The translations under genes were made by a program, and so were the position numbers. The notes beneath the pieces are model-generated. The model was not told the origin of the DNA. It ran no database searches and saw only the letters and a list, made by a program, of their open reading frames with translations. Positions 1,607-55,874 of a stretch of 64,000 nt of DNA are shown one piece after another. Each line of letters starts with the position of its first letter. The stretch's first letter is position 1. Source of the DNA: Candidatus Bathyarchaeota archaeon (GTDB taxonomy: Archaea; Thermoproteota; Bathyarchaeia; Bathyarchaeales; Bathycorpusculaceae); assembly GCA_963815095.1 (NCBI GenBank), contig CAWFFH010000003.1:896001-960000 (forward strand), written 5' to 3'.

Positions 1607-2644
1607 ATGGTGACATTCAGCGGTTGTTACACTGCACTAATAACCCCCATGAACCGTAATCGCCAAGTCGATTACGAAGGATTACAGCAACTAGTAGATT
1701 TCCAAATAAAAAACGGAGTCAAAGGTGTACTCGCCGTCGGTACAACCGGCGAAAGCCCAACCTTAGACTGGAACGAACACAGCAAAGTCATCGAGAAAGT
1801 ACACGAATATTCCAGCAATCGGGGCCAAACCATAGCAGGCACGGGAAGCAACTCAACACAAGAAGCCATAGACGGCACACAGCACGCCCAAGATTTCGGC
1901 GTAAACTGCGTTCTCCTCGTCGACCCATACTATAACGGGCCAAGTTCAATGGAGATTCGCAGAGAATACATCGAGCCCATCGCAAGTCAGTTCCCAGAAG
2001 TTCAAATAATCCCCTACATCATCCCGGGTAGAACGGGTACTCAGCTTTATCCCCAAGACCTCGCAATACTTCATCAACAGTACCCAAACGTTCGCTGCGT
2101 AAAAGAAGCCACAGGTGACCTAAAGAATATGGAGTTAACACGACAGGTCTGTGGTGCAGACTTCGACATACTCTCCGGTGACGACGACAAAACATACACA
2201 ATGATGATTTCACCCGACATAGCTGCAACCGGAGTTATATCGGTAGTCTCTAATGTTGCTCCAAGCGCAGTCGTAGACATGGTGCACTACATCCTCGACG
2301 GCAATGAAGAAGCTGCCAGCGTAATCGCTCAAGCACTCCAACCGCTCTTCAACATAGTTACTGTGAAAACCCAAGAACAAACACCTTACGGGCCAGTCGC
2401 GTGCAAAGCACGTAATCCACTCGCCTACAAGACTCTGATGAACATCTTAGGTATGCCATCGGGACCTTGCCGGCAACCGTTAGGAAAAATGACTCGCAAC
2501 GGATTAGACGTAGTCTTGGTAAACGCTAGAAAAATCTATGAAAGCAACCCACAAATCCTAAAGCCAGTCGCCGACTACTTTGGCGTCGACCTAAAGGAAC
2601 GACTCTACAACGAAAAGTATCTGGAGGAACTCTTCTACGCTTAA
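1607..2644 (+). CDS. dapA: 4-hydroxy-tetrahydrodipicolinate synthase
   Basis: TALITP, GTTGESPTL, PYYN, VKEATGD, ILSGDD. Confidence 0.95.
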   Translation: MVTFSGCYTALITPMNRNRQVDYEGLQQLVDFQIKNGVKGVLAVGTTGESPTLDWNEHSKVIEKVHEYSSNRGQTIAGTGSNSTQEAIDGTQHAQDFGVNCVLLVDPYYNGPSSMEIRREYIEPIASQFPEVQIIPYIIPGRTGTQLYPQDLAILHQQYPNVRCVKEATGDLKNMELTRQVCGADFDILSGDDDKTYTMMISPDIAATGVISVVSNVAPSAVVDMVHYILDGNEEAASVIAQALQPLFNIVTVKTQEQTPYGPVACKARNPLAYKTLMNILGMPSGPCRQPLGKMTRNGLDVVLVNARKIYESNPQILKPVADYFGVDLKERLYNEKYLEELFYA

Positions 2645-3431
2645 GCTCTGTGTTGCAGGCGCTGCAGGCCGAATGGGCAACGCTATCATTAGTGAAGCAA
2701 CATCAAAAGGACACCAAATCATAGGTGCCACAGAAGGACGCAACTCACCCTGCATAGGCAAAAGCCTTCGCCAACTAAACATCACTAATTCCGACACAAA
2801 AATTCTAAGCTCCGACAAACTAAGCGAAGCAGCCAGAGACGCTGACGTTTACATAAGCTTTACAATACCCGCTGCCGAACTAATCAACATCCCAATCGTC
2901 GCCAACCTCAGAAAACCCATAATCCTCGGCACCACAGGCTTCACCCCAGAACAATACAGACAAATTGTATCTGTAATGTCGGGAAAAGTCCCAGCTGTGT
3001 TCTCGCCAAACTACAGTGTAGGCGTCAACATACTCTTCAAGATAGCCGAATCCCTCAAAGCCTTTCCACAAGGCTTCGATTTCAGCCTAAGCGAAATTCA
3101 CCACACCGGCAAGAAGGATGCACCAAGCGGAACAGCAAAGAAACTTGAACAAATAGTTTCCCAAGCTCGTGGTTACTCAAAGACTGTTTACGGCAGGGAA
3201 GGTATTAGCCAACGTCAACCGGCAGAACTTGAATCGGTAGCACTTAGGGCAGGTGGAGTCCCAGGAATCCATGAAGTCATAGTTGCCGGACCCTACGAAA
3301 TGCTGCGAATTGAGCACATAGCTTTCTCTCGGAACGTGTTTGCACAGGGCGCTGTGTATGCAGCTGAATGGTTAAGCAAGCAAAATGAACCTAAAGTGTT
3401 CAGTATGGCAGATGTTTTAGGTTTAACTTGA
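2637..3431 (+). CDS. dapB: 4-hydroxy-tetrahydrodipicolinate reductase; apparent ACG start at 2637 (track start 2673 truncates the Rossmann motif)
   Basis: xLKLCVAGAAGRMG, GTTGF, EIHHTGKKDAPSGTA, FAQGA motifs; GGAGG at 2623-2627. Confidence 0.93.
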   Translation, partial: TLKLCVAGAAGRMGNAIISEATSKGHQIIGATEGRNSPCIGKSLRQLNITNSDTKILSSDKLSEAARDADVYISFTIPAAELINIPIVANLRKPIILGTTGFTPEQYRQIVSVMSGKVPAVFSPNYSVGVNILFKIAESLKAFPQGFDFSLSEIHHTGKKDAPSGTAKKLEQIVSQARGYSKTVYGREGISQRQPAELESVALRAGGVPGIHEVIVAGPYEMLRIEHIAFSRNVFAQGAVYAAEWLSKQNEPKVFSMADVLGLT

Positions 3432-50404: not shown

Positions 50405-50520
50405 TTCAAACCCTCAAAAACCTATAGAAACTAAGTGATTCCGTCCTTATCAGTTTATTGGAGCATTCAAAAATTGAACATTTTTATAAACTGCTTAACC
50501 AACTAATTACTTGTAAAGAG

Positions 50521-51462
50521 ATGCTAATTATGGAGAATTGGGATGTCATAATCATTGGCGCTGGCTCCGCTGGTTTAGCTGCGGGAATTTACACTGTTCG
50601 AAGTGGTTTGAAAACTTTGATTTTAGATGAGAAACTTCCCGGCGGAACAATCTCAGATGCCTCAATGGTGGTTAATTATCCTGGGTTTGCAGAGATTAGT
50701 GGTGGGGAATTGGCAGAAAAAATGACTCTGCATTGCAAAAAGGTCGGCGCAATCATTCACGATTTAGAGCCAGTCACTGAATTAGACCTTGTGGGCGAAA
50801 AGAAAATTGTGAAAACCTCAAACGCAACCTATGAGGCTAAAGCAGTAATATTTTCTGTTGGTTCACATTACAAGGGAATCGATGTTAAAGGTGAAAAAGA
50901 GTTTCGCGGTAGAGGCGTAAGCTACTGCGGTGTTTGCGATGGACCATTTTTTAAGGGCAAAAAAGTGCTTGTGGTCGGCGGTGGAAATTCAGCTTGCATT
51001 ACCACTCTCTATCTTTCCGGTCTCGCAGCACAGGTCACGGTTATTCATAGGCGGGAAGCGTTTAGGGCGGAAGAATCTTTGGTGTCGGACATATCCTCAA
51101 AAGGTAATGTTAATATCATGTGGAATACTGAAATTCAAGAAATCAAGGGCGACAAACAAGTAAAAGCCGTCACCCTAATCGATAACATAACAAAGAAAAC
51201 AAGTGAACTTTCAGTTGACGCGGTTTTTGTTCAAGTTGGCGAAGCACCCAACAGCCAAATAGCCAAAGCCAGCGGTGTAGAAACCGACGAGCATGGATAC
51301 ATCAAAATTGACATCCACCAACAAACAAATCTGCCTGGAGTTTACGCGGCAGGCGACGTAACTAACCATCCCATTAAACAGGTGGGTACTGCTGTGGGTC
51401 AAGGTATCACTGCAGCTCTTGAAGCTTATAGTTACATTCGACGACCCTATTACAAAAAATAG
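50521..51462 (+). CDS. trxB: Thioredoxin reductase
   Basis: IIGAG.AG, GVSYCGVCDG, VGGGNSA, HRR, AAGDV. Confidence 0.93.
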   Translation: MLIMENWDVIIIGAGSAGLAAGIYTVRSGLKTLILDEKLPGGTISDASMVVNYPGFAEISGGELAEKMTLHCKKVGAIIHDLEPVTELDLVGEKKIVKTSNATYEAKAVIFSVGSHYKGIDVKGEKEFRGRGVSYCGVCDGPFFKGKKVLVVGGGNSACITTLYLSGLAAQVTVIHRREAFRAEESLVSDISSKGNVNIMWNTEIQEIKGDKQVKAVTLIDNITKKTSELSVDAVFVQVGEAPNSQIAKASGVETDEHGYIKIDIHQQTNLPGVYAAGDVTNHPIKQVGTAVGQGITAALEAYSYIRRPYYKK

Positions 51463-51565
51463 AGAGTAAGGATTATATGATTCTTAACCTCTTTTCATTT
51501 TTTCAATCAGCTTAAGCTTTGATAAAGCCGAAATTAGTGGCTAGATGCATGAATGAGGTTTACAA

Positions 51566-52789
51566 ATGAGTGAAAAATGTCTCGCTGTAGTCGAAATCAA
51601 TCAAGACCTATGCAGTCGATGTTATGTCTGCAAATCAATCTGTCCCTATGAAGCTATAAAGGCGGATTCAACGGGCAAAGTTGAAATTAACAGTCAAGAT
51701 TGCCAAGTTTGCGGCATCTGCTATAGTGCTTGTCCCTCTGCAGCCATAAAAATGCAATATTACACTTACGATAACCTATCAGAATTCCTTGCGAAGGCGC
51801 AAATTAAAGCCAAAAACGTTAACACCCTTGTCTTGATGTGTCGAGGAAACTCGCCTTCCACAGGGGAAGTCCAAGACATCCTAAAAGAGCAAGGATTGAA
51901 AGTTGACAAATACATGGCTTTGCGTCTGCCATGTGCGGGTCGTGTTCCAACAGACTTTGTTTTTGAAGCCCTAAACTCAGGCGTTAAAAACATTGTTTCC
52001 ATCCAATGTGAAGACCCATTCTGCCGCTACAAAGAAGGCACAAAAATTAACACACGCAGACTCGTCTTAGCACGCAATGTTCTAAAACAATTAGGCTTTG
52101 ATGAGAACGCTGTAAGGGTTGTAAAGTTCTCCCGTAAAGCAGTCTATGACGTACAGGCATGTGTGGGTTGCGACAAATGCATCTTCATCTGCCCATACGG
52201 CGCGCTTGAGTTTGAGTCGTTTGCAACTCCAAAAGTAATTGAAGAAAAATGCACAGGATGCGGTGCATGCCAACTGGTTTGTCCACACCATGCAATACAA
52301 GTGAAAGGTTTCGAATTCGAAGATGTAGTTGACCGCTATGGCAAATCACTTGCACTTCTGAAAGACAAAAACAAAGGACCCGCCGTGCTCGCGTTCGTTT
52401 GTCAATGGTCCGAGTTCTCTGCATTAGATAATCCCAACAAAGCATTCGAAGGCAAAAACGTCCTGGCCCTTGAAGTTCCCTGCTTCAAATCCCTTGACCC
52501 CGTCCATATCATCAACGCATTAAACTGCGGCTTCGATGGTGTAATGGGCGTGGTTTGTTCAGCTAAAGACTGCAAGCTTCAAGAAGGAAGAGGCGCTGCA
52601 GAACGCAACGTGGCTGCACTGAAAGTTGCACTTAAAAAATTGGGTTTGCTCGACCGATTCGAACTCTACGAGGAGTCACCCAGATGCGCTGATGAATTCG
52701 AGGCAAAACTCGATGAATTCTACAAGAAAATTTGTACTTTACCAAAACGGGAAGTAGCTTTGGAGGCGACTGAAAAACGTACAAAATAG
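51566..52789 (+). CDS. Tandem (2[4Fe-4S] ferredoxin - MvhD/FlpD-like [2Fe-2S]) x2 fusion protein
   Basis: Four CxxCxxCxxxCP motifs in two pairs; MvhD-like MC..LPCAGRV..QC....C and VC.WS..VPC...DP..GFDGV...C....C. Confidence 0.85.
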   Translation: MSEKCLAVVEINQDLCSRCYVCKSICPYEAIKADSTGKVEINSQDCQVCGICYSACPSAAIKMQYYTYDNLSEFLAKAQIKAKNVNTLVLMCRGNSPSTGEVQDILKEQGLKVDKYMALRLPCAGRVPTDFVFEALNSGVKNIVSIQCEDPFCRYKEGTKINTRRLVLARNVLKQLGFDENAVRVVKFSRKAVYDVQACVGCDKCIFICPYGALEFESFATPKVIEEKCTGCGACQLVCPHHAIQVKGFEFEDVVDRYGKSLALLKDKNKGPAVLAFVCQWSEFSALDNPNKAFEGKNVLALEVPCFKSLDPVHIINALNCGFDGVMGVVCSAKDCKLQEGRGAAERNVAALKVALKKLGLLDRFELYEESPRCADEFEAKLDEFYKKICTLPKREVALEATEKRTK

Positions 52790-53622
52790 TATCGAAAAAA
52801 GAATTAGTTCCCAAGATCAAACTCTTAGAAGTTGATGCTCCAGACGTTGCGGCTCAATCACACGCTGGCCAATTCCTAATTGTAATCCATGGCAAAACAG
52901 GCGAACGAATACCCTTAACTATCTGCGGCTACGACACAACGAAAGGAACGGTTTCTTTTGCATTCCATGAAGTCGGCAAAACCACCAAAGATTTGGGCTT
53001 ATTAAACCAAGGCGAATGCATCGACAACGTTACGGGACCACTTGGCAACCCCTCTGAAGTTAAAAACTTTGGCAAGGTTCTCTGTGTGGGCGGAAGCATA
53101 ATGATTGCGCCTTTGCTATTGCAGGCTAAAGCCATGAAAGAAGCAGGCAACAAAGTAACTACAGTTCTAGGTGCCCGAACAAAAGAATTCATCATGATGG
53201 AAAATGAAGCTAAAGCCCTTAGCGAAAAAGTCTACGTTGCAACCGACGATGGGTCAAAAGGTTACAAAGGTTTAGATTTCCTAAAAGAATTGCTAAAGAC
53301 GGAAAAGTTTGACCGCTGTGTAGTCATGGGTCCAGTTATCCTGATGAAAGACGTTAGCGAAATTACTAAACCTTACAACATCCCCACAATAGTCACCTTA
53401 ACTCCCATAATGATTGATGGAATGGGTATGTGTGGAGTATGCCGAGTTACAGTCGACGGCAAAATGAAGTTTGGCTGTGTAGACGGACCAGAATTTGACG
53501 GTCACAAAACAGACTTTAACGAATTAATCATTCGTCAACGAACTATGCTTCCTGAAGAAAGGTTAAGTTCAGTATTATCGGAAATGAGTGGAGGTTGCAA
53601 GTGTGGCAGAAACAAAGCCTAA
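52777..53622 (+). CDS. sudB: Sulfide dehydrogenase/Nfn small subunit (SudB/NfnA); apparent ACG start at 52777
   Basis: xYKIVSKKEL, GQF, GERIPLTI, VGKTT, GPLG.PS, TDDGS, MIDG.GMCG.CRV, CVDGPEFDGH; frame open from 52774. Confidence 0.92.
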   Translation, partial: TYKIVSKKELVPKIKLLEVDAPDVAAQSHAGQFLIVIHGKTGERIPLTICGYDTTKGTVSFAFHEVGKTTKDLGLLNQGECIDNVTGPLGNPSEVKNFGKVLCVGGSIMIAPLLLQAKAMKEAGNKVTTVLGARTKEFIMMENEAKALSEKVYVATDDGSKGYKGLDFLKELLKTEKFDRCVVMGPVILMKDVSEITKPYNIPTIVTLTPIMIDGMGMCGVCRVTVDGKMKFGCVDGPEFDGHKTDFNELIIRQRTMLPEERLSSVLSEMSGGCKCGRNKA

Positions 53623-55012
53623 ACCAAAGTTAAACAAGAAAGCAGTTGAAATGGCTAAGCAAGAGCCAAAAGTTCGCGCTAAAAATTTCAGTGAAGTTGC
53701 TTTAGGTTACACTGAAGCAGAAGCCCAAGAAGAAGCAAGTAGATGCCTGTGCTGTCCAAATCCTCAATGCAGAACAGGTTGCCCCGTGGAAGTTCCAATT
53801 CCAACATTTGTCAAATGCATCAAAGAAAAGAAGTACGCTGAAGGCATCGCAGCAATCAAAACCAAAAACGCCCTGCCAGCAGTTTGCGGACGCGTCTGCC
53901 CACAAGAAGTACAATGTCAAGCCAAATGTGTCATCGGCAAGATGGGCGACCCAATCAGCATCGGACGTTTAGAACGGTTCCTTGCCGACTGGGAAAGAGA
54001 TAATGGCTCCCAACTTCCGCCAAAAGCTCCAGACACTGGTAAAAAAGTAGCAGTTATCGGTGCGGGTCCAGCAGGCTTAACCGTTGCGGCAGACCTCGTT
54101 AAACTCGGCCACAAAATCACCATGTTCGAAGCGTTGCATGTAGGCGGTGGAGTGCTCTCCTATGGTATCCCGGAATTCCGCTTACCCAAAACCATCGTGC
54201 AGGGCGAAGTTAATTATGTCCAGAGCCTTGGTGTTGATTTACGCCTCGGTAACCTTGTCGGCAGAATTCACACTATCCCAGAACTTATGAAGAATGGTTA
54301 CGACGCGGTATTCATTGGAAGCGGCGCGGGCTTACCCCAATTCACTGGTTGTCCAGGAGAAAACCTCGGCGGAATTTATTCAGCAAACGAATTCCTCATA
54401 CGCGTTAACCTCATGAAAGCCTACCTGTTCCCAGAGTATGACACTCCAATACGTCTCGGCAAAAAAGTTGTCGTTATCGGCGGCGGAAACGTAGCCATGG
54501 ATTGCGCAAGAAGTAGCATGCGACTTGGCTCCGAAGTCTGTTTACTCTACAGACGCTCACGCGACGAATTACCTGCAAGACATGAAGAAATCGAAAACGC
54601 TGAAGAAGAAGGCTTAGTCTGCAAATTCCTCGCAGCACCCCTAGAATTTTACGGTGACGAGAAAGGCTGGATTAAAGCCATGAAGGTCATTGCAATGGAA
54701 CTAACTGAACCAGATGCAAAGGGCAGAAGAGGCGTTAAAGAGGTTCCAGGCAGTGAATTCACAATGGATGTCGACACAGTCATAATTGCAATAGGACAGA
54801 CACCAAACCCAATCATCCAAAGCACCACAGGCGGATTAGTAAGTGACCCTAAACGAGGAACTATCACTGTTAACGAAGTTGGCAAAACAAGCTTAGACGG
54901 AGTTTACGCAGGCGGAGACGTCGCCACAGGCGCAGCAACAGTTATCAGCGCTATGGGTGCAGGCAAACGCGCAGCCAGGGCAATGCACGAATACTTAACA
55001 AACAAAGAATAA
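53603..55012 (+). CDS. sudA: Sulfide dehydrogenase/Nfn large subunit (SudA/NfnB, GltD-like)
   Basis: EASRCL.C...C..GCP, CGRVCPQE.QC, GAGPAG, YGIPEFRLPK, GGGNVAMD, AGGD..TGAATV. Confidence 0.93.
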   Translation: MAETKPKPKLNKKAVEMAKQEPKVRAKNFSEVALGYTEAEAQEEASRCLCCPNPQCRTGCPVEVPIPTFVKCIKEKKYAEGIAAIKTKNALPAVCGRVCPQEVQCQAKCVIGKMGDPISIGRLERFLADWERDNGSQLPPKAPDTGKKVAVIGAGPAGLTVAADLVKLGHKITMFEALHVGGGVLSYGIPEFRLPKTIVQGEVNYVQSLGVDLRLGNLVGRIHTIPELMKNGYDAVFIGSGAGLPQFTGCPGENLGGIYSANEFLIRVNLMKAYLFPEYDTPIRLGKKVVVIGGGNVAMDCARSSMRLGSEVCLLYRRSRDELPARHEEIENAEEEGLVCKFLAAPLEFYGDEKGWIKAMKVIAMELTEPDAKGRRGVKEVPGSEFTMDVDTVIIAIGQTPNPIIQSTTGGLVSDPKRGTITVNEVGKTSLDGVYAGGDVATGAATVISAMGAGKRAARAMHEYLTNKE

Positions 55013-55157: not shown

Positions 55158-55874
55158 ATGCGAAAGATTAAAGGTTCCAGCAGCTATCTCAAGAATCAGG
55201 TCAGAAAAAACCTCGCCAAAGCCACCTTAAGCGCGCTAATATTTTCAGCTGTCTTCGCACTATTAATCTACAGAATACTAGTAACACTGCAAGTTGGCAT
55301 CTTAGAGGAAGCAGGGCTCATTTTTTTGCTTGCACCAATGGTTAGTTTCTACTTTTATCTGCGTAAATACCGTATCTACAGAGGCGGTTGGCAAGGCGAA
55401 AAACAAGTTGCTAAACTCTTAACGAGTAAACTAAACGACGACTACTACCTCCTAAACGACCTCTACCTGCGAAGTGGCGGCGGAGATATCGATCATATCG
55501 TTTTGGGACCCAACGGGGTTTTCGTTTTGGAAACCAAGAATTGGAGTGGTAACATTTCCTGTAACGGCGACGAGTGGCAAAGAGTTGGCAAAAGAAATTT
55601 TTCAGGCAGCCCCAGTCGCCAGGTTAAACGAAATGCCGCCAAAATCAAACAAATAATTGATAACAATCCCAATCTAAGAACGCTGGGCATCTGGGTTGAG
55701 GGAATAGTGGTTTTTACGAATAATCATGCAGCCCTTCACGTGAATAAACCGACTGTTCAGATCCTTAAGCTATCTCAGTTGTCCAGCTACATAATAGGGT
55801 TCAGAAGCTCCCTGAGCATATCCCGTGATCAATTAGAAGCCATCGGAAAAGATATCGTTCAACAAAAGCATTAA
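55158..55874 (+). CDS. NERD nuclease-related domain protein with 2 N-terminal TM helices
   Basis: G..GE..V, DIDHIVLGPNGVFVLETKN, SP.RQ. Confidence 0.88.
   Translation: MRKIKGSSSYLKNQVRKNLAKATLSALIFSAVFALLIYRILVTLQVGILEEAGLIFLLAPMVSFYFYLRKYRIYRGGWQGEKQVAKLLTSKLNDDYYLLNDLYLRSGGGDIDHIVLGPNGVFVLETKNWSGNISCNGDEWQRVGKRNFSGSPSRQVKRNAAKIKQIIDNNPNLRTLGIWVEGIVVFTNNHAALHVNKPTVQILKLSQLSSYIIGFRSSLSISRDQLEAIGKDIVQQKH

Follow-up and report, generated by a model that had tools for sequence, protein, structure and literature searches.

The sudB/nfnA locus and its start region

The window, that is, the whole stretch of 64,000 nucleotides from a Candidatus Bathyarchaeota genome that was analysed here, contains a same-strand cluster in which the gene for a thioredoxin-reductase-like flavoprotein is followed by genes for a polyferredoxin, a SudB/NfnA-like protein and a SudA/NfnB-like protein (Table 1). 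The source organism is a soil archaeon. SudB gave a full-length match to NCBIfam NF004862 (PRK06222; 351.1 bits versus a cut-off of 220), and its C-terminal 2Fe-2S domain of the DHOD-B type was recognized by PF10418 (residues 212-245; 42.6 bits versus a cut-off of 23.9). The adjoining gene encodes a large subunit of the SudA/NfnB (GltD-like) type (TIGR01316, 580.3 bits versus a cut-off of 471.75; Fer4_20 and Pyr_redox_2 domains). As had been claimed in the preliminary description, its start shows a similar spacing, with GGAGG at 53590-53594, followed after 8 nt by GTG 53603, which is in frame with the ORF and results in an overlap of 20 nt with the end of sudB. The cluster partners of sudB, namely the flavoprotein gene and the gene for a polyferredoxin with two MvhD domains, suggest that the products may form an electron-transfer complex.

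Table 1. Positions of the genes and start-site elements discussed in the text (window coordinates, except for the last line)
Feature	Position	Strand	Remarks
Thioredoxin-reductase-like flavoprotein (Pyr_redox_2)	50458..51462	+	first gene of the same-strand cluster
Polyferredoxin with two FlpD/MvhD domains (upstream gene)	51566..52789	+	TAG stop 52787-52789
SD core GGAGG of sudB	52762-52766	+	within the 3' end of the upstream gene
In-frame TGA	52771-52773	+	closes the sudB frame two codons 5' of ACG
ACG, proposed sudB/nfnA initiation codon	52777-52779	+	Met1 position
sudB/nfnA-like CDS	52777..53622	+	281 codons plus stop; FAD/NAD-binding small subunit with 2Fe-2S domain
TTG, first canonical start in the sudB frame	52993..52995	+	72 codons 3' of ACG
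sudA/nfnB-like CDS	53603..55012	+	likely start GTG 53603; first canonical codon of the ORF is GTG 53588
dapA (DHDPS)	1607..2644	+	stop TAA 2642-2644 overlaps dapB
GGAGG of dapB	2623..2627	+	within dapA; 9 nt to ACG
dapB CDS	2637..3431	+	starts with ACG 2637-2639
ACGs of the fasciclin and TrmB-like genes	G000:C3:1509111 and C7:33650		

The sequence at 52771-52788 reads TGA-AAA-ACG-TAC-AAA-ATA and is followed by GTA (T-Y-K-I-V); in the source genome, AAA and ACG are the only entry codons left between the TGA and Tyr2 of sudB. Positions 2-268 (of 281) of the NF004862 profile correspond to residues 3-266 of the K-T-Y... translation and, because profile position 2 aligns with the residue that follows the ACG, the ACG occupies profile position 1, that is, Met1. 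A spacer of 10 nt separates GGAGG from the ACG, and the polyferredoxin ORF overlaps sudB by 13 nt, its TAG lying 10 nt past the first base of the ACG. Every coordinate of this geometry in the preliminary description, including the TGA and the first canonical start 72 codons downstream, was confirmed, and the placement of the ACG at the homology-defined Met1 is borne out by the profile alignment. It should be noted that the C and the G of the ACG double as positions 1 and 2 of an Arg codon in the overlapping polyferredoxin gene, and their invariance is therefore not purely a matter of start-codon selection.

Among 19 congeneric species genomes, the Met1 column of sudB is ACG in 13, ATG in five and GTG in one, and the SudB proteins of the 13 ACG congeners are 85-98% identical to that of the source genome. 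In codons 2-72 of these 13 species, 23, 12 and 65 sites are variable at codon positions 1, 2 and 3, respectively; because 65 of the 71 third positions vary, this region is evidently translated and well diverged. The sudB ORF is intact and, as judged from the aligned sequences, under purifying selection, and TTG 52993 is not a plausible start, because it is preceded by 72 codons that are under such selection. A 151-nt unitig of the public run X1 (Logan), which spans 52664-52814, is identical to the window, ACG included; runs X2 and X3 had no coverage of the site, and four contigs of X4 (Logan), which cover the ACG at most 31 nt from their ends, were not counted either way. Read support at 52778 and conservation in sister genomes had been named as checks in the preliminary description, and the identical unitig together with the 13 species indicates that the ACG is no miscall.

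Of 120 public protein clusters of SudB (ENA, JGI, NCBI and Logan), 15 contain T-Y-K forms. Since 47 of the 120 clusters are called 3' of Met1 and 15 are extended 5' through the ACG, such genes in Bathyarchaeia MAGs are systematically cut short or wrongly extended, or run the risk of being taken for pseudogenes.

ACG at Met1 in dapB and in other genes

The preliminary description had counted two genes of the window with ACG at Met1; the second is dapB, and this assignment and its geometry proved correct. The gene is part of a dapA-dapB-asd-lysA operon. Positions 2-124 of the PF01113 (DapB_N) profile align to residues 3-126, the start column is ATG in 27 of 27 intact relatives, and a protein begun at ATG 2673, the earliest canonical start, would lack the beginning of the NAD-binding fold. 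The overlap of dapA and dapB is 8 nt, with the SD inside dapA, and the T/C difference between ATG and ACG coincides with the synonymous third base of the penultimate codon (Tyr) of dapA.

An ACG at the same column was found in the genomes of three other species and in 14 JGI metagenome contigs, the latter retrieved with a degenerate ACG-only pattern and thus uninformative on the frequency of ACG; an exact 30-mer search for dapB in metagenomes yielded no matches. On a dapB tree with 42 rows, seven ACG/ATG changes are needed, at least three of which are forced by well-supported branches, and the dapB ACG is estimated to have at least three origins. A perfect GGAGG precedes 16 of 18 ACG copies overall; the two copies without it (L151 and L170) count against the reading of ACG as a start. 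In sets that had been gathered without reference to the SD, GGAGG was present in 15/15 ACG versus 1/27 ATG rows of the tree, and in 1/3 ACG versus 9/77 ATG copies of a species census that is unbiased as to codon. When reduced to phylogenetically independent comparisons, only three supported pairs remain; all of them behave as expected, but the sign test gives p 0.25.

The source genome was scanned for in-frame codons that follow a strong SD and lie at least 10 codons 5' of the first canonical start (2441 coding-like ORFs). ACG was the most enriched triplet, with nine observed versus 1.59 expected from gene interiors (Poisson 4.4e-5; about 0.003 when corrected for 64 triplets), and the enrichment was also seen relative to all such leader codons (nine versus 1.97 expected, Fisher 1.5e-4); since the scan demanded an SD, the presence of an SD in these cases is partly built in. 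Five of the nine matches lie exactly at a homology-defined Met1, namely those of sudB, dapB, a fasciclin protein, a TrmB-like regulator and the unknown protein P0004. The remaining four (C3:205438, C3:903812 and one each on C5 and C6), which have weak coding scores or unchecked homology, are about the number that chance predicts.

The homologues of the fasciclin and TrmB-like genes have ATG, TTG or GTG at the ACG column, and the Pfam N-terminal domains begin 10-13 residues after the ACG, which in both genes is known from one assembly only, that of the source genome. P0004 still has its ACG in G010 (73% identity), as do two G001 paralogues (65% and 63%). An in-frame stop is located 0-2 codons 5' of the ACG in four of the five genes, and in all five the next canonical start is 12-72 codons further 3', within conserved domains. 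In addition to the 10 nt in sudB, the GGAGG-ACG spacing is 9 nt in dapB, the fasciclin gene and P0004, while the TrmB-like gene has GGTGA 6 nt 5' of the ACG, which is the same register. For canonical first starts of this genome, the GGAGG-to-start spacing peaks at 9-10 nt, with 49 of 88 starts at 8-10 nt; the 3' end of its 16S rRNA reads ...GGATCACCTCCT.

In an 800-kb sample of G040, which belongs to another family of the same order, ACG was again the top-enriched triplet (three observed versus 0.11 expected, P 2e-4), and two of its ACG matches lie at or next to the start of a Pfam match (OCD, 2-319 versus profile positions 2-312; CobS, 11-270 versus profile positions 2-206). A sample of the same size from the congener G002 contained no ACG match (0.59 expected), and a scan of about 440 kb of relatives' loci returned only the target genes themselves. 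ACG and CUG were the commonest non-canonical codons in the scanned samples. The genome-wide enrichment, the presence in five gene families and the further cases in other species and in a second family of the order bear out the earlier view that ACG at Met1 reflects a rule rather than chance. The proposed restriction to coupled, operon-internal genes is not supported: no ORF overlaps the fasciclin, TrmB-like and P0004 genes from upstream (P0004 follows a 43-nt spacer) and, because this applies to three of the five genes, neither coupling nor frameshifting can be the general cause.

Candidate explanations for the ACG codons

The ACG in sudB/nfnA, dapB and the other genes is most likely a real start codon that has been missed by gene finders. 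The features of a near-cognate start, that is, the Met1 position, a functional SD spacing and retention under purifying selection, are found together at sudB, and ACG 52777 is probably its functional initiation codon, at which Met-tRNAi would mediate SD-driven near-cognate initiation. A perfect GGAGG at the optimal distance of 8-10 nt would set the P site of the 30S subunit on the ACG, and Met-tRNAi (anticodon CAU) would pair with it despite the mismatch at the middle position, so that initiation might be weak yet sufficient. In sudB and dapB, ribosomes coming off the overlapping upstream gene may provide extra help by termination-reinitiation coupling; the stop/start overlap typical of this mechanism is present (13 and 8 nt, respectively), the coupling itself being putative. 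ATG-to-ACG changes would have been tolerable and would have persisted chiefly in genes that have a perfect SD. As the same solution would have been adopted in at least four other genes of the source genome and in genes of other members of this Bathyarchaeia order, ACG would be a genuine, if infrequent, start codon of the lineage.

The initiation machinery of the source genome looks ordinary in the respects that were inspected. A divergent aIF1 had been suggested as a cause, of which there is no sign: the protein aligns without gaps over 99 residues with aIF1 of M. jannaschii (E 9e-33, whole-alignment comparison). Aragorn detected 45 tRNAs and missed some; the set contains one initiator-like tRNA(CAU) and one ordinary elongator tRNA-Thr(CGU), and a special initiator tRNA with the anticodon CGU was not among the 45.

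Some public gene calls would be in line with a start elsewhere. NCBI calls of SudB with 278 aa fit a start at an Ile codon (ATA 52786), JGI calls begin at codon 5 where that codon is GTG, codon 4 is ATA, ATC or ATT in 20 of 20 sudB loci, and near-cognate codons are also found 5' of the ACG in the fasciclin gene (ATA) and 3' of it in P0004 (ATT/ATC). Translation might begin at such a neighbouring codon, or at a downstream canonical one, to yield a protein that is at least three residues shorter, the ACG being a relic. This is unlikely, because the distance between GGAGG and ATA 52786 would be 19 nt, which is found in 1 of 88 canonical GGAGG starts, because the TrmB-like gene and dapB have no ATA, ATT, ATC or CTG beside the ACG, and because the enrichment of ACG over other codons would be left unexplained. 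The sole feature that the five genes and the two genes of G040 have in common is ACG at the Met1 column with a spacing of 8-10 nt. For sudB only, a fusion of polyferredoxin/MvhD and SudB can be envisaged, produced by a GGAGG-stimulated -1 slip on A-AAA before the TAG (52783-52789): the sudB frame is indeed -1 relative to that of the polyferredoxin gene, the ACAAAATAG/A string is present in 18 of 19 congeners (L015 differs), and bacterial examples of -1 shifts near stops that are stimulated by an SD are known (dnaX and B. subtilis cdd). However, the zero frame (GAA AAA CGT ACA AAA TAG) contains no X-XXY-YYZ heptamer, a conserved slippery site is lacking, and the ACAAAATAG/A string also occurs in most of the ATG/GTG species, where it simply encodes Y-K-I. 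A fusion is thus very unlikely at sudB, and it would require the opposite shift (+1) at dapB and leave the fasciclin, TrmB-like and P0004 genes unexplained, as an upstream overlap exists at sudB and dapB only. A -1 slip on the AAAAA before the sudB ACG was considered separately and rejected, since the A-run varies between species (GCAAAACG, CGAAACG, GTAACACG).

The interchange of ACG and ATG at one column between related species would also be compatible with site-specific C-to-U editing, which would turn ACG into AUG in the mRNA. The flanks of the five sites have nothing in common but the SD, and a restored AUG would make the accompanying perfect SD needless; that ACG varies together with the strength of the SD points to a codon whose weakness is offset rather than to one that is restored. 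In addition, a search for the CMP/dCMP-deaminase family (PF00383) returned one ordinary gene, and this family also matches 12 of 14 control genomes, and no report of mRNA editing in archaea was found in a literature search that was not aimed at it specifically. Editing is accordingly regarded as highly improbable. Least credible of all is an artefact or decay, either a T-to-C miscall or the loss of starts in genes that are no longer expressed. Three of the five ACGs (dapB, fasciclin and TrmB-like) are absent from the 24 congeners sampled, as would fit such an origin, but 13 separate species assemblies, 15 public protein clusters drawn from four sources and the identical unitig all have the sudB ACG, the dapB ACG recurs in the 14 JGI contigs, and the ORFs are intact and under purifying selection, with dapB forming part of the dapA-dapB-asd-lysA operon.

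Initiation at ACG, the reading preferred here, can be extended to the order as a whole, albeit tentatively and with some doubt. The order might have a widened start-codon set, in which ACG and CUG are selected, heritable and read by the ordinary initiator tRNA on aIF1/aIF2 machinery; this would amount to a eukaryote-like hierarchy of near-cognate codons on SD-led mRNAs, with expression set by ATG/ACG switching and SD strength. If this were true, gene callers and NCBI table 11 would need ACG for this lineage. Conserved ACG starts in intact metabolic genes, if true, would offer a natural system for the study of aIF1/aIF2 stringency and of the compensation of a weak codon by the SD.

Comparison with known systems

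In bacterial genetics, changing ATG to ACG is a standard way of killing a start codon, and the fact that this change is used to disable starts in Synechocystis and Sinorhizobium counts against the reading of ACG as a start. According to the available text of a study on E. coli, ACG is able to initiate with Met, and it falls into a class that initiates at 0.1-1% of AUG (Hecht et al., bioRxiv 10.1101/063800); the low efficiency counts against ACG as a start, as does the statement, in the available part of a review, that aIF1 of Sulfolobus was reported to reject AUU (PMC4705826). AUG, GUG and UUG are the only starts named in the accessible portion of a 2020 review of archaeal initiation (PMC7531240). 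A literature search turned up no description of ACG as a natural start codon in either bacteria or archaea.

Termination-reinitiation coupling has been described for overlapping gene pairs in archaea and bacteria (PMC6728339, PMC10666635), and sudB and dapB resemble the pairs in the available portions of these studies in that they start 13 and 8 nt, respectively, before the upstream stop, have the SD inside the upstream gene and encode a complex subunit (sudB) and a pathway enzyme (dapB). Unlike ACG here, the starts of the pairs covered by these portions are ATG, GTG or TTG, and three of the five ACG genes are uncoupled.

In plant organelles, ACG start codons are subject to C-to-U editing (ndhD, psbL), and edited organellar start codons likewise show an interchange of ACG and ATG between relatives. 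The ACG at Met1 described here also alternates with a genomic ATG among relatives; in contrast to the organellar case, the sites have no cis element in common and no editing factor is known. Rare non-canonical starts of bacteria include the AUU of infC and pcnB, and CUG, AUA, AUC and AUU are listed in NCBI table 11. The archaeal cases are similar in that a near-cognate codon at Met1 follows a good SD, is kept across species and is presumably read by the initiator tRNA, but they differ in the codon, since ACG has its mismatch in the middle position and is outside table 11, and in the aIF1/aIF2-type selection; unlike infC, the ACG genes are metabolic and regulatory genes without evident autoregulatory logic. 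Near-cognate initiation at ACG is known from eukaryotes and their viruses, for example, VP2 of AAV. There, the start is selected by scanning and Kozak context rather than by SD/anti-SD positioning, and in the present genes ACG is the sole start and does not give rise to an alternative isoform. Nevertheless, Met-tRNAi and a machinery of the eIF1/eIF2 type would be common to both, and the prevalence of ACG and CUG among the non-canonical codons resembles the eukaryotic hierarchy.

Start region of sudB and its neighbourhood

The sudB gene is an ordinary member of the SudB/NfnA family (NF004862, 351 bits in a profile search, cut-off 220), and the geometry that the preliminary description had proposed for its start, with TGA, AAA and ACG following a GGAGG motif, was borne out in every coordinate by the sequence (Table). 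The ACG lies 13 nt inside the upstream polyferredoxin ORF, and the earliest ATG, GTG or TTG in the same frame is TTG 52993, 72 codons downstream. Positions 2-268 of the profile align with the residues after the ACG codon and, therefore, ACG occupies Met1.

Table. Features of genes with proposed ACG or CTG starts and of their surroundings (plain numbers, window positions; G000, own genome; G002, congener; G040, another family of the same order; C, contig; L, locus)
Feature	Position	Strand	Remarks
SD core GGAGG of sudB	52762-52766		10-nt spacer to ACG
In-frame TGA	52771-52773		followed by AAA, then ACG
ACG of sudB	52777-52779		at Met1 (52777); followed by TAC AAA ATA GTA
Upstream ORF, polyferredoxin with two FlpD/MvhD domains	51566..52789		TAG stop 52787-52789
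sudA, SudA/NfnB-type partner, next to sudB	GGAGG 53590-53594, GTG 53603		TIGR01316, 580 bits
dapB	2637		GGAGG 2623-2627, 9-nt spacer; DapB_N profile 2-124 vs residues 3-126
Fasciclin-domain protein	G000:C3:1509111		ATG/TTG in homologues at ACG column
TrmB-like regulator	G000:C7:33650		ACG right after TAA; homologues TTG/ATG/GTG at column
Unknown protein P0004	G000:C3:1054669		ACG at Met1 column
Ornithine-cyclodeaminase-family protein (G040)			ACG hit; Pfam match 2-319 vs profile 2-312
CobS (G040)			ACG hit; Pfam match 11-270 vs profile 2-206
Flavodoxin (G040)	L290:17018-17500	+	CTG at/near Met1 behind SD; Pfam 2-153 vs profile 1-154
Alba protein (G040)	L294:5846-6121	+	CTG at/near Met1 behind SD; Pfam 6-69 vs 1-65
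DegT aminotransferase (G002)	L253:14254-15381	+	CTG at/near Met1 behind SD

The SudB protein was searched against 40 relatives, 24 of them congeneric, and the start column was read in 19 orthologous loci of the genus and in one locus of another family. Within the genus it holds ACG in 13/19 loci (own genome included), ATG in five and GTG in one; the other family has ATG. The SudB proteins of the ACG genomes are 85-98% identical to that of the own genome, and on the SudB tree the start codon requires two changes, or possibly one, with one ATG species nested within ACG species. Across the 13 ACG species, the variable sites of codons 2-72 number 23/12/65 at codon positions 1/2/3, and synonymous codon differences exceed non-synonymous ones in 12/12 pairwise comparisons; therefore, the stretch that would be lost with a canonical start is translated and constrained.

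Among the best 120 public SudB clusters (gene calls from ENA, JGI, NCBI and Logan), 58 have M-Y-K at Met1, 15 have T-Y-K and are extended upstream, and 47 are called downstream; the names attached to these entries assign the lineage to Bathyarchaeia. One public soil run, which may be the source sample, contains a 151-nt unitig that spans 52664-52814 with zero differences. Read support and conservation of the ACG, both left to be checked in the preliminary description, are provided by this unitig and by the congeneric loci. In the public run X4, several strain-variant contigs start or stop at 52761/52762 and 52787/52802 (window 52761-52802) and have only the SD-ACG-overlap core in common, so that no other stretch is as conserved between the co-occurring strains as the start region. 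The sudB orthologue of one relative (G011:C3:125185-126031) is in two overlapping pieces and is probably frameshifted.

The GGAGG, 8-nt spacer and GTG claimed for sudA are present as well. The mechanical sudA ORF opens at GTG 53588 (window 53588-53605); this motif and its spacing favour GTG 53603 as the true start codon, in which case sudA would share 20 nt with the end of sudB. The cluster at 50458-55012, encoding a thioredoxin-reductase-like flavoprotein, a polyferredoxin with two MvhD domains, SudB and SudA, may specify a putative uncharacterised electron-transfer complex, possibly bifurcating, and is followed by a NERD-domain gene (55158-55874).

Proposed ACG starts in the genome and the evolution of dapB

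The own genome (2.69 Mb, nine contigs) was scanned using 2441 stop-to-stop ORFs (minimum length 100 codons, coding-like codon usage), and in-frame codons were counted that lie at least 10 codons 5' of the first canonical start and 5-11 nt behind a strong SD 5-mer. ACG was the top-enriched triplet of all, with nine occurrences where gene interiors predict 1.59 (Poisson 4.4e-5) and all leader codons of that class 1.97 (Fisher 1.5e-4). Five of the nine coincide exactly with the Met1 column of their homologues, in keeping with the proposed rule rather than a one-off; the remaining four are about as many as chance would give and are candidates only. The ACG of P0004 is kept in two relatives' genomes, G010 (73% identity) and G001 (two paralogues, 65% and 63%), and distant homologues start with ATG or GTG.

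In the dapA-dapB-asd-lysA operon, the dapB start overlaps the dapA stop. The base that distinguishes ATG from ACG falls on the third position of the penultimate codon (Tyr) of dapA, where T and C are synonymous, so that the exchange matters to the dapB start alone. The start is ATG in 27/27 relatives whose DapB has its N-terminus intact. Metagenomes scanned for the ACG form yielded 14 contigs from many data sets, the DapB proteins of which are only 67-84% identical to the own DapB. In an unbiased census, which covered the best 80 of 188 species genomes, 77 had ATG, three ACG and none any other codon. On the dapB tree of 42 rows, the start codon requires seven changes, at least three of them forced by well-supported branches. 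The SD motif, which played no part in the dapB search, covaries with the start codon: GGAGG precedes 15/15 ACG rows versus 1/27 ATG rows of the tree, kin among these not being independent, and 1/3 ACG versus 9/77 ATG rows of the census. Only three supported independent pairs exist, which all point in the same direction (sign test not significant, p 0.25), and two dapB-ACG species (loci L151 and L170) are devoid of GGAGG. The dapB orthologue at G020:C10:87948-88463 contains four stops.

Proposed mechanism of initiation

The preliminary description had suggested relaxed start-codon fidelity on coupled genes. Overlap with an upstream gene is found for sudB and dapB; neither the fasciclin gene nor the TrmB-like gene has one, and a T-rich spacer of 43 nt precedes P0004, so that a restriction to coupled genes does not hold and coupling or frameshifting cannot be the general cause. 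Common to all cases are ACG at Met1 and a GGAGG 9-10 nt 5' (8 nt in one G040 gene) or an equivalent GGTGA register; GGAGG at 9-10 nt is the mode for canonical starts in the own genome (49/88 at 8-10 nt). The usual CCTCC is present at the 3' end of the 16S rRNA. The components of the initiation machinery appear normal: a single initiator-like tRNA(CAU) was detected beside one elongator tRNA-Thr(CGU), and aIF1, suspected earlier of being divergent, aligns gap-free with that of M. jannaschii. From the shared ACG and SD spacing and this ordinary machinery, we infer SD-anchored near-cognate initiation, in which Met-tRNAi would initiate at ACG; where genes overlap, reinitiation may assist. Published data point in both directions. 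ATG-to-ACG changes have been used to knock out starts in two bacteria. ACG initiates with Met in E. coli, but in a class at 0.1-1% of AUG (10.1101/063800), and AUU is reported to be rejected by aIF1 in vitro (PMC4705826).

Some public gene calls imply that sudB is initiated at the adjoining ATA (52786), which would lie 19 nt from the SD motif, a spacing found in 1/88 canonical starts, and would leave the ACG enrichment unexplained. A -1 fusion of SudB with the polyferredoxin would require frameshifting, but a conserved slippery heptamer is absent, and the fusion fails for the uncoupled ACG genes. The same interchange of ACG and ATG between species would be produced by C-to-U editing; however, the ACG sites have no common flank, and the SD covariation speaks against it. 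A search with PF00383 found a single ordinary gene of the CMP/dCMP deaminase family. Recurrence of the ACG forms in relatives and public data rules out sequencing error or gene decay in the case of sudB and dapB; either could still apply to the fasciclin and TrmB-like genes, whose ACG codons come from this assembly only.

Probable near-cognate starts across the order

The ACG scan was repeated on 800-kb samples of two relatives. The G002 sample contained no ACG (0.59 expected) and four CTG (0.67 expected), and the G040 sample three ACG versus 0.11 expected (P 2e-4), two of them validated by Pfam. Judged from these sequences, near-cognate starts, ACG and CTG foremost, appear to occur across the order.

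Several further loci are of note. A hybrid response-regulator/histidine-kinase gene (L024:1528-3015:-; G000:C3:158528-160015) has its receiver domain from residue 4, but its first 19 codons offer no canonical start; AAG stands right after TAA and AAGGAG, and codon 4 is ATT. A geranylgeranyl-reductase-like flavoprotein (L025:1371-2852:+; G000:C5:126871) has an apparent ATC start behind AAGGAG; a start at the first canonical codon, number 16, would remove part of the FAD-binding fold. In G021, a paralogue of the TrmB-like regulator (L108; G021:C3:102559-107607) shows ATT in the Met1 column, preceded by GGTGGAGG. Four successive ORFs of about 124 codons at G000:C3:109439-111313, spaced by 522 nt and identical in their first 36 bases and upstream context, look like one coding unit repeated in tandem. 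At G000:C1:176754-177080 (- strand), the beginning of an open frame shows GCGGAGG with about 24 consecutive A after it.

A 2020 review of archaeal initiation names AUG, GUG and UUG only (PMC7531240). No report of such ACG start usage was found in the openly accessible articles searched, and an earlier one may exist. The usage would resemble both the rare non-canonical starts known from bacteria and the near-cognate initiation of eukaryotes, and it differs from them in the codon ACG, the archaeal host, the SD-led mRNAs and its retention through speciation.
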